53,640 bases of DNA from positions 1-53,640 of the forward strand of contig CAZAEI010000005.1 of the NCBI GenBank assembly GCA_964484305.1, given 5' to 3'. The stretch comes from an uncultured archaeon. GTDB taxonomy: Archaea; Aenigmatarchaeota; Aenigmatarchaeia; QMZP01. Positions 21,554 through 27,464 of the stretch are shown in pieces. Position 1 is the first letter of the stretch. Every line of letters starts with the position of its first letter. Under the pieces are notes generated by a model. It was given only the letters and a program-made list of their open reading frames with translations, was not told the DNA's origin and searched no databases. The position numbers and the translations under genes are program-made.

Positions 21554-23013
21554 AAGCCCATGGAATCCTTATCAGAGGAAAGTGGATAAAGTCCAGTTCA
21601 GGCGAGACCCAGGAGAGCATAAACCCCACAACAGAGAAACCACTCGGCCTGTTCCAGAGGGGAACAGCCCACGATGTTGACCTTGCAGTGGATGCAGCAG
21701 AGAAGGCCCTTCCGGCATGGAGGGATCTCCCTGCCCCAAGGCGGGGCGAAATCCTGCTCAGAATAGCCAACCTCCTCAGAAAAAACAAGGAGCGTCTAGC
21801 CAGGCTCATGACCATGGAGATGGGTAAGGTGATATCCGAGGCCCGCGGAGACGTTCAGGAAGCCATTGACATAACCGAGTACATGGCAGGCGAGGGCCGC
21901 CGCCTCTTTGGCCACACCACCCCCTCAGAACTCCGTGACAAGTTCTGCATGACCATGAGGATGCCCCTTGGCGTCTGCGGCCTGATAACACCCTGGAACT
22001 TTCCCATAGCCATCCCTTCCTGGAAGCTCATGCCCGCCCTGATATGCGGCAACACCGTGGTATTCAAGCCTGCATCTGACACCCCTCTCTGCGCAATCGA
22101 GTTTGTCAAGCTCATGGAATCCACTGGCCTCCCCAGGGGTGTGGTCAACCTCGTGACAGGCCCGGGCAGCTCTGTGGGCACCGCCTTGGTGAAGCACCGC
22201 GACATCAGGGGCATCTCCTTCACAGGCTCCAGGGACGTCGGTGAGTTCATCTCCCGCGAGGCCGGACTCAAGAAGGTTGGCCTTGAGTTGGGCGGCAAGA
22301 ACGGTATAATAGTCATGGACGACGCCAACCTCGAGCTTGCCCTGGATGGAGTGATATGGGGGGCCTTCGGCACAACCGGCCAGCGCTGCACAGCGGCCTC
22401 CAGGGTAATCGTCCACAAAAAAATCAAACCAAAATTCGAGAAGATGCTGGTCTCCAGGATAGGCAAACTCAGGCTCGGGGACGGCCTCAAACCCTACACG
22501 GATGTGGGTCCCCTAATCAACAGGACGGCCCAGAGAAAGGTTCACTACTACACCGGTGTGGGCCTCAGCGAGGGGGCCAGGCTCCTCTGCGGCGGCTCCC
22601 CTGTCAAGGGCAGGGGATTCTTCTACAGACCCACCCTTTTCACCGATGTCACCCCCAACATGCACATAGCCCAGGAGGAGATATTCGGACCCTCCCTCTC
22701 CCTAATCGAGGTCCAGAACCTCGACCAGGCCATCGATGCCATGAACTCCATAACCTACGGCCTCAGCTCTGCGATATACACAAACAACGTCAGCAGGGCC
22801 ATGGAGGCAGTGGAGAGGATAGAATCGGGCCTGGTCTATGTCAACTCCAGCACCATCGGCTCCGAGGTTCACCTGCCCTTCGGCGGGGTCAAGGCCACGG
22901 GCCACGGCCGCGAGGCCGGCATTGAGGGCCTCAACGAGTTCTCCGAAACCAAGACAGTCTACATAGACTACTCCGGCCGCCTCCAGAAGGCCCAGATTGA
23001 CGTGATCAAATGA
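21550..23013 (+). CDS. NAD(P)-dependent aldehyde dehydrogenase
   Basis: ITPWNFP, FKPAS, FTGS, LELGGKN, GQRCTA, EEIFGP, PFGGVK. Confidence 0.95.
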   Translation: MKAHGILIRGKWIKSSSGETQESINPTTEKPLGLFQRGTAHDVDLAVDAAEKALPAWRDLPAPRRGEILLRIANLLRKNKERLARLMTMEMGKVISEARGDVQEAIDITEYMAGEGRRLFGHTTPSELRDKFCMTMRMPLGVCGLITPWNFPIAIPSWKLMPALICGNTVVFKPASDTPLCAIEFVKLMESTGLPRGVVNLVTGPGSSVGTALVKHRDIRGISFTGSRDVGEFISREAGLKKVGLELGGKNGIIVMDDANLELALDGVIWGAFGTTGQRCTAASRVIVHKKIKPKFEKMLVSRIGKLRLGDGLKPYTDVGPLINRTAQRKVHYYTGVGLSEGARLLCGGSPVKGRGFFYRPTLFTDVTPNMHIAQEEIFGPSLSLIEVQNLDQAIDAMNSITYGLSSAIYTNNVSRAMEAVERIESGLVYVNSSTIGSEVHLPFGGVKATGHGREAGIEGLNEFSETKTVYIDYSGRLQKAQIDVIK

Positions 23014-23096
23014 AATAAAGTCCGACGCATTCCCCCTTGTTGATGGGGGAGTTAGTAGGGTATAATTATTTAAATAACTGATTACAATACATTACT

Positions 23097-23228
23097 ATGA
23101 TGAAGAGAAAATGCCTAAAATGTGGACATAGGTGGGTTCCAAGAATAGATAATCCAAGGGTGTGTCCCAAATGCCATTCCGCATGGTGGGATAAGGAAAC
23201 TAAACATGCAAGTGGCAAAAACCGTTAG
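23097..23228 (+). CDS. 43-aa zinc-ribbon microprotein inside the IS, upstream of tnpB
   Basis: Translated by hand: MMKRKCLKCGHRWVPRIDNPRVCPKCHSAWWDKETKHASGKNR*. Two CxxC pairs; overlaps the tnpB start. Confidence 0.65.
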   Translation: MMKRKCLKCGHRWVPRIDNPRVCPKCHSAWWDKETKHASGKNR

Positions 23229-24318
23229 GTGCAAGATACACTCCCTTACAGGGATAAAGGAACAGATACTCAGCGATGAGTATAACGATTACCAAACTTT
23301 GTGCAAAGAGGTGTCGGATTGCGTGGACAACGACTGCATGCCACAGCTTCCATATTTCACATTCAAGAAGCCCCACAGGTACAGTGCGACCGTGTGGGGG
23401 GCCATAAGGAGTATAGAAAAGAAGAGACAGTTCGACAACATCAAGGAGCAGCCATTACACCTACGCAACGATGTTTTTACAGTCGTGGAGAAGCAGACCG
23501 AGGTGTCCAAGCATTGGCTCAGGCTACCCACCAAGCAGAGGCATGGTGGGGTTTGGCTACCAGTCATAGTCCCAAGGAAATACGAGAGCCTGCTAAAGCT
23601 AAATGTAGGCGACTCGAAGATAGCCAGGAACAAGAATGGATGGTTCTTGATGCTGACCGTCAGGAAGGAAGTAACTATCCGAAAATCATACTCTAACATA
23701 CTCGCCATAGATCTGGGGGAGAAAGTCATAGCGACTGTCTGTGGCAGTTTCAACAGCCAGAGACCCGAGTTTCTGGGGCGGGAGGTTAGGGGAACACGAA
23801 GGCACTATGCATGGCTACGCAAGAGGCTCGGAAAGAAGAAACTCCCAAAGGTAATCAAGCAGATAGGACAAACGGAACAGAGGAAGGCCAACGACACCCT
23901 GTTCAAGATAGCAAGGCATGTCAACGATCTGGCAGAGGAGCACAACGCTATAATCGTCCTTGGAGACCTTAAGGGCATAAGGAACTCAGCCAAAGGTAAG
24001 AGATTCAATAGAATAGTATCTTCTATGCCATACTTCAAACTAACCCAAACCATAACACACATGGCTAACTGGGATGGAAGACAGGTAATCAAGATAGATG
24101 AGAGGGGAAGGACATCCCACACATGTTCAAGGTGTGGAAGCAAGGGGACAAGACCACACCAGGGCTTATTCGGATACCCCCACTGCGGATACCAAGCGAA
24201 TGCCGACCATAATGGTGCAAAAAGAATCGCACAGATAGGTCTTGAGACTATACCATCTCTTGATGGGGCGACACTGGCATCGCCCATAACTTTAGGAGCG
24301 TGGCAACGTGCCCACTAA
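23206..24318 (+). CDS. tnpB: TnpB RNA-guided endonuclease
   Basis: RuvC-I LAIDLG, IVLGDLKGI, KIDER before TSHTCSRCG, RuvC-III NADHNGAKRI; 370 aa. Confidence 0.92.
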   Translation: MQVAKTVRCKIHSLTGIKEQILSDEYNDYQTLCKEVSDCVDNDCMPQLPYFTFKKPHRYSATVWGAIRSIEKKRQFDNIKEQPLHLRNDVFTVVEKQTEVSKHWLRLPTKQRHGGVWLPVIVPRKYESLLKLNVGDSKIARNKNGWFLMLTVRKEVTIRKSYSNILAIDLGEKVIATVCGSFNSQRPEFLGREVRGTRRHYAWLRKRLGKKKLPKVIKQIGQTEQRKANDTLFKIARHVNDLAEEHNAIIVLGDLKGIRNSAKGKRFNRIVSSMPYFKLTQTITHMANWDGRQVIKIDERGRTSHTCSRCGSKGTRPHQGLFGYPHCGYQANADHNGAKRIAQIGLETIPSLDGATLASPITLGAWQRAH

Positions 24319-25195
24319 AGAACCCTCACCCTTCAGGGTGGGGAGTGTCAGATACATCTCCAGGGGCTTTGTCAGGAAGTCCTATCCCGAAAGGCCAGCA
24401 TGGTCCCACAAGGGGGACTTCGGCAGGCTCCTTGTGGTGGGCGGCTCCAGGAGATACTCAGGCGCCCCTGCCCTGGCCGCCTTGGCTGCCCTCCGCTCTG
24501 GCTGCGACCTCGTGACAGTGGCTGCCCCTGAGCGTGCTGCCAACATCATAGCCTCCTTCTCCCCTGACCTGATAACAGAGCCCATAACAGGAAACTGCCT
24601 CAACAACTGGCACACCCGCTCAGTTCTTGAGATGGCCAAGCAGGCAGATGCCGTCGTCCTGGGAGGCGGCCTCGGAAGGAGGCCCGAGACCATGACCTTT
24701 GTCCAGAACCTCCTGGCCCGCCTTGACAAACCCTGCGTCATAGATGCCGATGCCATCCACGCTGTCTCGGCAAACAAGAAGCTCCTCGGGGGCAGCTTCA
24801 TCCTCACTCCCCACTCAGGGGAGTTCCTCACCCTCACAGACCACGAACCCAGCCAGAATATAAAGGAAAGGCTCGAGCAGGCCAGGCTCTTCTCCTCCCA
24901 CATGGGCTGTGCCATACTCCTCAAGGGCCACATCGATGTCATATCAGACGGCAAGTCCGTGGCCCTGAACAGGACTGGCATACCATTCATGACCAAGGGC
25001 GGAACAGGCGACATCCTTGCAGGCATCTGCGGCGCCCTCCTAGCAATGGGCCTGGAGCCATTCGGGGCGGCCTGCTCAGCAGCCTATATAAACGGCCTTG
25101 CGGGTGACCTGGCCTCAAGGGAGTTCGGCCCGGGTCTGCTCGCCTCAGACCTGATTTCTTTCATACCCAGGGCCCTGAAGTCAATCCTTGGATAG
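24308..25195 (+). CDS. nnrD: ADP-dependent NAD(P)H-hydrate dehydratase, 5' end interrupted by the IS (native start 23010)
   Basis: HKGDFGRLLVVGGS, YSGAPALA, VIDADA, LTPHSGEF, LLKG, KGGTGDILAG. The first 15 codons of the track ORF are IS right-end sequence. Confidence 0.88.
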   Translation: MPTKEPSPFRVGSVRYISRGFVRKSYPERPAWSHKGDFGRLLVVGGSRRYSGAPALAALAALRSGCDLVTVAAPERAANIIASFSPDLITEPITGNCLNNWHTRSVLEMAKQADAVVLGGGLGRRPETMTFVQNLLARLDKPCVIDADAIHAVSANKKLLGGSFILTPHSGEFLTLTDHEPSQNIKERLEQARLFSSHMGCAILLKGHIDVISDGKSVALNRTGIPFMTKGGTGDILAGICGALLAMGLEPFGAACSAAYINGLAGDLASREFGPGLLASDLISFIPRALKSILG

Positions 25196-25630
25196 CTTGG
25201 ACCTTATACAGTCTATCACATCGATGTCTGCTTGAAATCCCAGGATATTTCTGGCCCTGCTGGTATCCGCCTGCGTCTCCTTTACATGGTTCTTTATGGG
25301 GGTTTCAACCAATCTATATTCTTTCAGGCCCACGGCCTCTATTATATCCCTGAGCGAGTGCACCCTTTCGGTTCCGATGTTCATCACATCCGAGACCACA
25401 CTGGAATTCATGGCTTTAATAAAGGCCTCCACCACATCATCAACATGAACAAAATCCCTCAACGTCTCCATATCATAGACATCAAATTGTTCTCCTGATT
25501 CCTTTGCCCAAATCATCTGCGAGGCTATATTTGCATGTCTTCCCTTACTTTTCTCATTATTACCATACACGCTAAACAGCCTGAGTCCGACCGACTCGAG
25601 CCCGAAGAAATTACGCCATGTACCATTCAT
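25181..25630 (-). pseudogene. C-terminal fragment of an NAD-dependent epimerase/dehydratase (extended SDR)
   Basis: GLRLFSVYG, RDFVHVDDVVEA, NIGT, ADTSRARNILGF. The N-terminal GxxGxxG and YxxxK regions are missing. Confidence 0.75.
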
Positions 25631-25926
25631 TACTGGCTATCCTATACAAGCTGGGTTATGGGAGCAGGAACCAGGAATGTACAATCAATGCAATAGAATA
25701 TTTCATTGATGAAGAAAAACTGGATATCGACAGGGAGTATATAGAAATGATAAGGTCTGCCAAGAAGAGGGAGGGTGCAAAATCAACAAGAGAAGATATG
25801 CAATACGGTGCAAAAACAAGGCTGGAGGAGGACAGGTGCAGGGGCTTAATGCACAATGCCATGAGGTTTGTTGAAAAGATGAGGGTTGCGTTAAAGATAA
25901 TAGACATTGACACCAACGGAGAGTGA
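25612..25926 (+). pseudogene. N-terminally truncated HEPN-domain protein
   Basis: YAMYHSLLAIL...SRNQEC...RE-x2-QY pattern of archaeal HEPN proteins. The first helix is missing, and the fragment is back-to-back with the epimerase fragment. Confidence 0.6.
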
Positions 25927-25994
25927 GAACAAACCAGGCCATTCTTGTATGTCTGCAGGACTGGGGCTGTTTTTTATTCCAGGGCCGGCTGAAA

Positions 25995-27464
25995 TCATGT
26001 GTATATCCTGAGCCTGCTGTAGAGCCGCCTTATCCTGTCATAGAGCATGTTGACATCCTGATAATCCTCTGCCTCATTGAGCTGGTCATACAGGGAGACT
26101 GTCTCCCTGTAGAGCTTCTTGGCGATGTCAAGGTTCCCCCTCTTTATGGCCTCTTCGATCTGGTCCATCAGGGAGTCCATGCTGCCCTCTATCGCAAGGA
26201 CAGGGCTAATCTGTGTCAGGGGTCTATTCTCTGTACCGGGCTGTGGCGGGCCCCCCTCTCGGACAGGTGCAGGGGGAATCCTTCCCCCGGTTTTTTTAAC
26301 ATCCTCCGTTCTCGGGAGAGCCTTCCTAGGAACTTCCCCGGACTCTGGCTTCTCCCGGACAGGGGCCTTGGGGATTTTCCTGACATGCTGTTGCCTTACC
26401 ATTTCAGAGAAATCCGGACCCGTTCCCTTTATTTCACCAGCGAACTCTATCCTCTTCTCCCTCACAGTCTGCGCTGTGGCCTCCCTGAGCATGTCCAGCT
26501 TGGCGCCTATCTCCTCCAGGTCATCCTTGGTCGCAAACATCCTGTCCAGCCTTGACTTGCCCACACTTTCCATGATACCCTTCATACCGCTTTCCTTTAG
26601 CGCTGTAAGAAGGCTATCCACAAGCTTCTTGAGTTCATATAGCTTGTCATCACCCTCTGTTCTCACCCGCTCGAACCTCTCCTCAACGGAGCCCTCCAAT
26701 TTCTTCAGGTCATCCTTCTTTGTGGTTTCATCGAACCTTGTCTCGAGCGTGTCAACAACCTTCATTATCTCGTGCATGGTCTCCTCATTGAATGCTATTC
26801 TGTCCTTGTAGCTCTGGAACTCCCCGAGCTTGTTGCTGAGGTCCGAGAACATAGTCTCTATCTTTCCGGCTGTTCTTGATGTGAACTTCCTGTCATCATC
26901 TATCTTACCCATCTTCTCCTTGAGCGTCTGAACAACACCAGACATCTCCTTGATTCCCCTGATGTTTTCCAGCACATCGGAGTTAGCCTTTATGTCCTTT
27001 CTCAGCTGCTTTATCTGTACAGCAAGGGCCTCTATTGTTGCCTGGTTCTTCTCAATTGACTCATCCTTCTCGGCGAGCTGCCTGGTTATCTTCTCGGGCT
27101 CCATACCCTCTGCCATCTCCTTTATACTGGAGAATCCCTTCTGGACCTCCCTGGTAACCCTGTCCCTCTCCATCACAGAGGACCTGAGCTCGCCAATCTC
27201 CTGGTTGAGGCCAGAGAGCCTCTCATCCACAGCCTTCCGGTAGTCTGCCATGGCCTCTATCTTTCCCTCAAGCTTCTCTGTCTTCAGAACAAGCATCTCC
27301 ACATCAGTGGCCTTTTCTCTGCGGGGCGGTTTCGGTACTGCCTCCACCTTGGCAGGGGTCTTCTTGAGCCTTACCTTCTTTTCCTCTTTCTTCTCAAGCT
27401 CCTCAAATTCTGAGGGGGTTATCACATTCTCTTCATTAGAGGATTTCTTGTCCTTTTCTTCCAA
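25995..27464 (-). CDS. Uncharacterised cytoplasmic long coiled-coil protein
   Basis: About 300 aa of E/K/L heptad-rich sequence, a Pro-rich linker and a helical C-terminal domain. TTG start after a GGTGA RBS, abutting the stop of the giant gene. Confidence 0.7.
   Translation of the reverse strand: MEEKDKKSSNEENVITPSEFEELEKKEEKKVRLKKTPAKVEAVPKPPRREKATDVEMLVLKTEKLEGKIEAMADYRKAVDERLSGLNQEIGELRSSVMERDRVTREVQKGFSSIKEMAEGMEPEKITRQLAEKDESIEKNQATIEALAVQIKQLRKDIKANSDVLENIRGIKEMSGVVQTLKEKMGKIDDDRKFTSRTAGKIETMFSDLSNKLGEFQSYKDRIAFNEETMHEIMKVVDTLETRFDETTKKDDLKKLEGSVEERFERVRTEGDDKLYELKKLVDSLLTALKESGMKGIMESVGKSRLDRMFATKDDLEEIGAKLDMLREATAQTVREKRIEFAGEIKGTGPDFSEMVRQQHVRKIPKAPVREKPESGEVPRKALPRTEDVKKTGGRIPPAPVREGGPPQPGTENRPLTQISPVLAIEGSMDSLMDQIEEAIKRGNLDIAKKLYRETVSLYDQLNEAEDYQDVNMLYDRIRRLYSRLRIYT

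Follow-up and report, generated by a model that had tools for sequence, protein, structure and literature searches.

The window analysed here, a 53,640-nt stretch of contig CAZAEI010000005.1 from an uncultured archaeon of the Aenigmatarchaeota, carries a non-autonomous IS200/IS605-family element of 1337 bp on its plus strand (23015..24351, with one A ambiguous at the junction); all features described below lie on that strand unless stated otherwise. The element comprises a gene for a 43-aa zinc-ribbon microprotein (23097..23228), a tnpB gene for a 370-aa protein with a rearranged RuvC-II site (23206..24318), which the microprotein ORF overlaps by 23 nt, and an omegaRNA-like scaffold (24207..24351) spanning the 3' end of tnpB and the right end. 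Its boundaries are the points at which similarity to sister loci starts and stops, with the onset just past TGAA(A) upstream and the end at GTCAG downstream, and GC content is 0.40-0.52 across the element against 0.57-0.62 in the flanks. The insertion split nnrD. The element is absent at the orthologous site of a same-genus genome (G001), where an aldehyde dehydrogenase gene is followed by an uninterrupted nnrD starting ATG-AAA, and removing 23015-24351 in silico restores the nnrD reading frame with the same N-terminal length as in that genome. The tetranucleotide TGAA (23011..23014) overlaps two gene boundaries, the stop codon that closes the aldehyde dehydrogenase gene upstream and the ATG-AAA with which nnrD originally began. 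Of 9 sister elements, 8 likewise have TGAA(A) immediately 5' of their left end, from which TGAA is predicted to be the TAM; it occurs on the left side only and there is no target duplication, as is usual for IS200/IS605 insertions. The base following GTCAG varies among the sisters, which favours 24351 as the right end and TGAA as the TAM.

Subterminal hairpins, another hallmark of the family, are present at both ends. The one at the left end, read from the sequence (23031..23050; 6-bp stem, 8-nt loop), is kept in sister elements with a zinc-ribbon (Zn), ribbon-helix-helix (RHH) or tnpA gene upstream of tnpB, and the one at the right end (24323-24343) lies inside the omegaRNA-like scaffold. A TATA-box-like sequence, TTTAAATA (23069..23076), lies about 25 nt 5' of the microprotein ATG and is kept in all sister elements; it is the putative promoter of the element, and its spacing implies a leaderless or near-leaderless transcript. 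Within the microprotein ORF, 9 nt 5' of the tnpB ATG, is a Shine-Dalgarno-like AAGGA (23193..23197) that may serve tnpB, and a GAGGAG/AAGGAG-like run is kept at this position in Zn-, RHH- and tnpA-type elements. The element encodes no Y1 transposase TnpA and must therefore be non-autonomous: the slot is filled by the 43-aa ORF. No cognate TnpA was found in the host genome, which is 88% complete and holds a single copy of the element; its sole Y1 transposase (L206, G000:C17:546-908) is 28% identical to the TnpAs of the sisters. There is also a second, distant TnpB (L002, G000:C31:6446-7135; 29% identity).

Some further features of the site deserve mention. The disrupted nnrD, an NAD(P)HX dehydratase-like gene (24308-25195), lost its ATG-AAA start through the insertion, and in-frame GTG codons at 24308 and 24338, within the right end of the element, could be rescue starts. 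Most sister insertions follow ATGAA(A) (L052:2804, L005:2806, L161:1279, L165:601 and L163:225, as well as position 23010 of the window); since this resembles the start codon of a host gene with a Lys codon after it, the TAM may steer these elements towards the starts of genes. A second dip in GC content (0.42-0.46), at 25250-26000, coincides with a short ORF on the minus strand (25181-25630).

A rearranged TnpB and its omegaRNA

The TnpB is readily recognised by profile searches: it scores 136.8 bits against the NCBIfam model guided_TnpB (NF040570; cut-off 100) and 61.4 bits against Cas12f1-like_TNB (PF07282; 9e-17, cut-off 26.3). The canonical D-E-D triad is not found at its usual RuvC positions. 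While the RuvC-I Asp (IDLG, D169) and the RuvC-III Asp (NAD, D334) are present, alignment to solved Cas12f structures places the Gly of LGDL (G253) under the Glu of the canonical EDL motif, and a Glu (E299) appears upstream of the zinc finger instead. Both G253 and E299 are invariant in an alignment of 28 sequences, with relatives 43-100% identical, which assigns the protein to the known "RIIr/Ealt" rearranged type; since that subtype is an established one, the relocated Glu299 probably restores the triad in three dimensions. Between RuvC-II and RuvC-III, where the clade consensus is a C4 zinc finger, the window copy has C307, C310, Y324 and C327. At position 324, at least 90% of relatives have Cys and the window copy alone has Tyr, and C324Y and Y285H are the sole departures of this copy from columns conserved at 90% or more. 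An earlier reading of this DNA, made from the sequence only, had described the Glu-to-Gly change, the Glu before the zinc finger and a degenerate second finger pair, and had pointed to known clades with a relocated Glu; all of this holds, with the added detail that the degenerate finger is private to the window copy.

Altae-Tran et al. 2023 (PMC10691335) described RIIr TnpBs, in which a Glu further downstream makes up for the change of Glu to Gly, and Yoon et al. 2023 (PMC10711439) described "Ealt" TnpBs, whose Glu precedes the zinc finger by six residues. The window TnpB shares with these proteins the Gly in RuvC-II, the conserved Glu upstream of the finger and the D-hydrophobic-G of RuvC-I; it differs in that seven residues rather than six separate the Glu from the first Cys, and in having lost one zinc ligand through C324Y. 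Candidate branches for it are RIIr-5, -6 and -8.

The last 145 nt or so of the element have the conserved structure expected of an omegaRNA. A consensus fold over 11 sister elements contains 48 pairs, 12 of them with compensatory changes, and conservation stops sharply at 24351, immediately after GTCAG; the structured RNA thus runs across the 3' end of tnpB and ends at the right end, as it should in a TnpB system. An Rfam search of the window matched no family. Under the TnpB/omegaRNA model, the guide is read from the DNA just 3' of the right end. The predicted guide-encoding flank is accordingly 24352..24371, the first bases of the interrupted nnrD, and TnpB is predicted to carry out RNA-guided cleavage adjoining the TAM TGAA; the restored empty site, TGAA followed by the sequence of 24352..24371, would be its target.

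Of 371 genomes in a sample of the phylum, 12 contain the TnpB clade, and neither of the two same-genus genomes has it. The nearest genome with a sister element carries the label Candidatus Aenigmatarchaeota and belongs to the same family as the host of the window. The closest TnpB of all (L164:1-260; 77% identity) has lost its left end, its slot and its own ATG, which now reads ATA; its tnpB was extended upstream by gene callers and the copy is probably decaying. A scan of viral contigs (viral_contigs) returned a single relative above 31% identity, which at 46% is too distant to add an example of a slot type. As a separate observation, the elements at L132, L135 and L162 are flanked by virus-like genes (YopX, Hjc-like, HNH, DUF5131, DNA methylase and runs of small ORFs), which suggests that archaeal viruses spread this element family.

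A small-gene slot upstream of tnpB

The 43-aa microprotein has the pattern CxxC-x13-CPxC and a pI of about 10. It is clearly under purifying selection. In the 36 codons that lie outside the overlap, comparison with the L052 orthologue gives dN 0.13 and dS 1.26 for the microprotein, and the two tnpB genes show dN 0.16 and dS 1.47; dN/dS is thus about 0.1 and equal for the two genes. Three of the four Cys codons differ synonymously between the window and L052. Zinc-ribbon ORFs occur at the identical position and frame offset in L052, L005 and L022, and the four Cys, Trp13 and Pro24 are invariant in the four IS-borne copies. The TnpBs of L052 and L005 are each 75% identical to that of the window, with microproteins 72-74% and 35% identical, respectively, and in L022 the corresponding values are 37% for TnpB and 38% for the microprotein. 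The zinc ribbon is very basic, with 10-12 Lys and Arg in roughly 42 residues. ORFs with two CxxC pairs make up 0.29% of all ORFs of 30-60 aa in the loci examined.

The fold is recognisable in general terms. An AF2 model (pLDDT 75) consists of a zinc-knuckle hairpin followed by a helix at residues 24-40. Searched with Foldseek against the PDB, this model returned generic zinc ribbons only (ribosomal proteins, Nop10, LysW and PF0610), all at E > 1; Pfam zinc-ribbon families (PF23470, PF24445, PF09538 and others) stayed below their gathering cut-offs, the best at 21.5 bits against 26, and a profile search gave no RHH match. The neighbours of the microprotein in the ESM Atlas are unnamed clusters of 40-51 aa, none of them specific. 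A word-based protein database search with the microprotein returned no candidate, not even the microprotein itself, which indicates that gene callers miss the gene.

The possibility that the microprotein arose from tnpA through an internal deletion was considered and rejected. Local alignments of the cores with three TnpAs, each evaluated against 2000 shuffles, gave best p values of about 0.008-0.012 (21 comparisons, uncorrected), stemming from a short W-I-P motif. The microprotein and TnpA have only their last eight or so residues in common, and these are encoded by the overlap with tnpB.

A survey of about 96 TnpB relatives shows what else this slot can hold. Sister elements with 68-77% TnpB identity share the left-end hairpin, the TATA-like box some 25 nt upstream of the first ATG, the Shine-Dalgarno-like site and the 23-nt overlap, and the slot between these landmarks is occupied by a zinc ribbon in the window, L052 and L005, by a Y1 transposase of 130-131 aa in L132-134, L162 and L163, or by a 42-aa Arc-like RHH protein in L135, L161 and L165, and also in L053. 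The RHH proteins are bona fide members of their fold (RHH_3 at 2e-12; DUF7557 above cut-off) and a trio of them is likewise conserved, with dN 0.04 and dS about 1. Across the whole survey, at least 14 loci encode an RHH-type protein of 39-58 aa, about 20 have tnpA or remnants of it and four have a two-CxxC ORF, always at the same position and frame offset; most of the remaining slots contain nothing recognisable. The Zn-, RHH- and tnpA-type backbones have the 5' end of tnpB in common, and the segment that differs by type runs from just past the TATA box to just before the Shine-Dalgarno-like site, so that the promoter-proximal DNA moves together with the small gene to which it belongs. A possible further variant is found at L055 (2604-2978), where an ORF of 124 aa containing several CxxC pairs extends 11 nt into a 59%-identical tnpB and may be a larger zinc protein in the equivalent slot.

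Slot content switches repeatedly on the TnpB tree. In the maximum-likelihood tree the four Zn-type elements need four changes: that of L052 is sister to a tnpA-type element (support 100/99), and that of L022 is nested between RHH-type elements. The same mixture is seen in a distant TnpB subfamily (37-39% identity), in which one Aenigmarchaeota genome holds both an RHH-type and a Zn-type element with the same ends. Furthermore, the IS-borne zinc ribbons fall into three subtypes, each closest to different free-standing microproteins of 34-50 aa in the phylum, which points to repeated recruitment. The contexts of such free-standing relatives were viewed at a handful of loci; in one of these (L186:1480-2281) the relative lies directly upstream of a LAGLIDADG endonuclease gene and in another (L194:1465-2531) it overlaps a C5 cytosine methylase gene by 1 nt, pointing to a controller-like position upstream of selfish or DNA-acting genes.

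The microprotein gene is therefore real and under selection, lies within the mobile unit and is exchanged with RHH and tnpA genes as a module. The sequence-only reading had picked out the 43-aa CxxC/CxxC ORF overlapping the start of tnpB and placed it where tnpA would be, and this placement turns out to be exact, down to the left-end hairpin, the TATA box and the 23-nt overlap found in tnpA-type sisters; the pairing search that it proposed finds the small ORF again beside the tnpB homologues of L052, L005 and L022, so that the lack of conservation which would have refuted that reading is not observed. Its choice between a passenger and a regulator can be narrowed: a regulator is the better reading by analogy with Arc, and the word passenger applies only in the sense of cargo that is exchanged as a module. 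Its suggestion that the microprotein structurally complements the damaged zinc finger finds no support, since C324Y is private to the window copy, the partner TnpBs of L052, L005 and L022 have intact CxxC...CxxC fingers, and relatives of the microprotein also occur free-standing or 5' of unrelated genes.

Possible functions of the zinc ribbon

In bacterial IS605 elements, the RHH protein Arc was shown experimentally to bind the promoter of the element and to repress it (a 2026 preprint, bioRxiv 10.64898/2026.09.24.754181). By analogy, the zinc ribbon could be the counterpart of Arc, repressing the promoter of its own element and so keeping the expression of tnpB and the omegaRNA low, a proposal to which we give roughly an even chance. 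The TATA box of the left end would drive transcription from the microprotein ATG or close to it, and tnpB would be translated from its own Shine-Dalgarno-like site embedded in the microprotein ORF. The microprotein would then bind promoter-proximal DNA of its own element and thereby repress transcription of itself, tnpB and the omegaRNA. This proposal rests on the interchangeability of the zinc ribbon with RHH proteins in position, size, charge and selection, and on the promoter-proximal DNA that is carried along with each. The strength of purifying selection on the microprotein matches that on tnpB; the proteins that fill the slot in RHH-type sisters share the fold of Arc, which binds and represses IS605 promoters; the mixed genome of the distant subfamily repeats the exchange; four changes of slot content together with repeated recruitment of Zn subtypes indicate that it has happened several times; and free-standing relatives in a controller-like position, as well as the Lys/Arg-rich composition, fit a DNA-binding regulator. 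On the other hand, the zinc ribbon is not homologous to Arc, and its function is thus transferred by position only. The presence of the Zn ORF in just four of about 96 slots and the generic matches of the fold searches also speak against repression. Each slot type has short repeats, direct or inverted, in the stretch from the TATA box to the ATG, which in the window take the form ATTAC N5 ATTAC, but this DNA is AT-rich and the repeats may be no more than chance would give.

Zinc ribbons frequently bind RNA and proteins as well, and the microprotein could thus bind TnpB or the TnpB-omegaRNA complex and inhibit or modulate it, in the manner of an antitoxin or a cofactor. Gene overlap would ensure the co-expression that such a partnership needs, and direct action of this kind has been proposed for small DNA-binding proteins upstream of archaeal rearranged TnpBs, where RHH/MazE-TnpB pairs (RIIIr-4) were interpreted from co-folding as toxin-antitoxin modules (Altae-Tran et al. 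2023, PMC10691335). We nevertheless consider it unlikely here. Non-homologous RHH and Zn folds, and three Zn subtypes, have been swapped on nearly identical TnpBs, which makes a specific interface improbable, and relatives of the microprotein are for the most part free-standing or 5' of unrelated genes. The published pairs do resemble the present one in having a small DNA-binding-type gene directly 5' of an archaeal, catalytically rearranged tnpB, but theirs is a clade in which the RuvC-III Asp is changed to His and the zinc finger is lost, and which was described as immobilised (PMC10691335). The clade of the window, by contrast, keeps the RuvC-III Asp (NAD) and the finger, has intact ends and a TAM, and occupies different insertion sites, with autonomous tnpA-bearing sisters. 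Moreover, if the guide targets the empty site only, a resident element would need no antitoxin.

Two further roles would leave transcription untouched. A very basic zinc ribbon might bind the single-stranded end hairpins or the omegaRNA and affect mobilisation or RNA processing, and the conserved hairpins at the left and right ends and the structured 3' RNA would offer it suitable ligands. However, the ends and the omegaRNA are alike across Zn-, RHH- and tnpA-type elements, and it is the promoter-proximal DNA that co-varies with the small gene; with the only Y1 transposase in the 88%-complete genome so distant from the sisters' TnpAs, a part in mobilisation is further weakened, and we regard this role as improbable. 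The ORF might also be a mere translated spacer, a leftover of tnpA whose sequence is unimportant and which couples ribosomes from a leaderless mRNA to tnpB. Its position, ATG context and 23-nt overlap are the same as those of tnpA, and the transcript is probably leaderless. Yet a dN/dS near 0.1, the synonymous differences at three of the four Cys codons, a Cys pattern kept across copies that are only 35-38% identical, a tnpB with its own Shine-Dalgarno-like site and a core without significant similarity to TnpA leave this idea very little room, and we judge it the least probable of all. Repression of the element by its own zinc ribbon remains our preferred reading.

Both rearranged RuvC sites and small regulators in IS605 elements are already published, and what appears to be new is the zinc-ribbon form; among the papers searched, none links TnpB with a zinc-ribbon microprotein. 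The closest counterparts are the Arc-carrying IS605 elements described by Moon, Zedaveinyte, Wiegand & Sternberg (bioRxiv 10.64898/2026.09.24.754181). In both cases a micro-sized nucleic-acid-binding protein that annotation often misses is encoded inside an IS200/IS605 element and next to tnpB, here at 23097-23228 within 23015-24351, and sister elements of the one in the window have true RHH proteins in the identical slot. The differences are equally clear. The protein in the window has a Cys4 zinc ribbon, modelled as a hairpin and a helix, in which no homology to RHH can be detected; Arc accompanies tnpA, whereas the zinc ribbon replaces it and is co-directional with tnpB and overlaps it; and the Arc elements are bacterial, while the present host is a DPANN archaeon with a TATA-type promoter, where repression would be by analogy. 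Another instructive comparison is with small autoregulators of selfish genes such as the controller (C) proteins of restriction-modification systems, whose short ORFs likewise sit just upstream of a selfish, DNA-acting gene and share its transcript. C proteins have a helix-turn-helix fold, and the likeness of the zinc ribbons to them is one of gene position, seen at few loci.

A broader and more speculative view is that archaea (DPANN) have a widespread, so far unrecognised class of "controller" microproteins, the zinc ribbon among them, that selfish DNA-acting genes, such as TnpB elements, homing endonucleases and orphan methylases, have repeatedly captured together with their operator DNA, and that are interchangeable in function with RHH repressors; or else that the zinc ribbon is a direct modulator of TnpB-omegaRNA activity and, as such, a natural switch for a miniature genome-editing nuclease. 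We hold this view to be doubtful at present.

IS605-family elements were long thought to carry tnpA and tnpB only. Our analysis shows that in archaeal TnpB-only elements an unrelated fold, a 43-aa zinc ribbon, fills the slot of Arc, is under equally strong selection and has been swapped with RHH and tnpA genes several times. If the zinc ribbon also represses, self-silencing would be a general need of TnpB elements, one that is met by any small DNA binder at hand, and microprotein/TnpB pairs could then serve as compact, natural control parts for TnpB-based editors. The finding also draws attention to a large family of archaeal microproteins that lack annotation and merit functional study.
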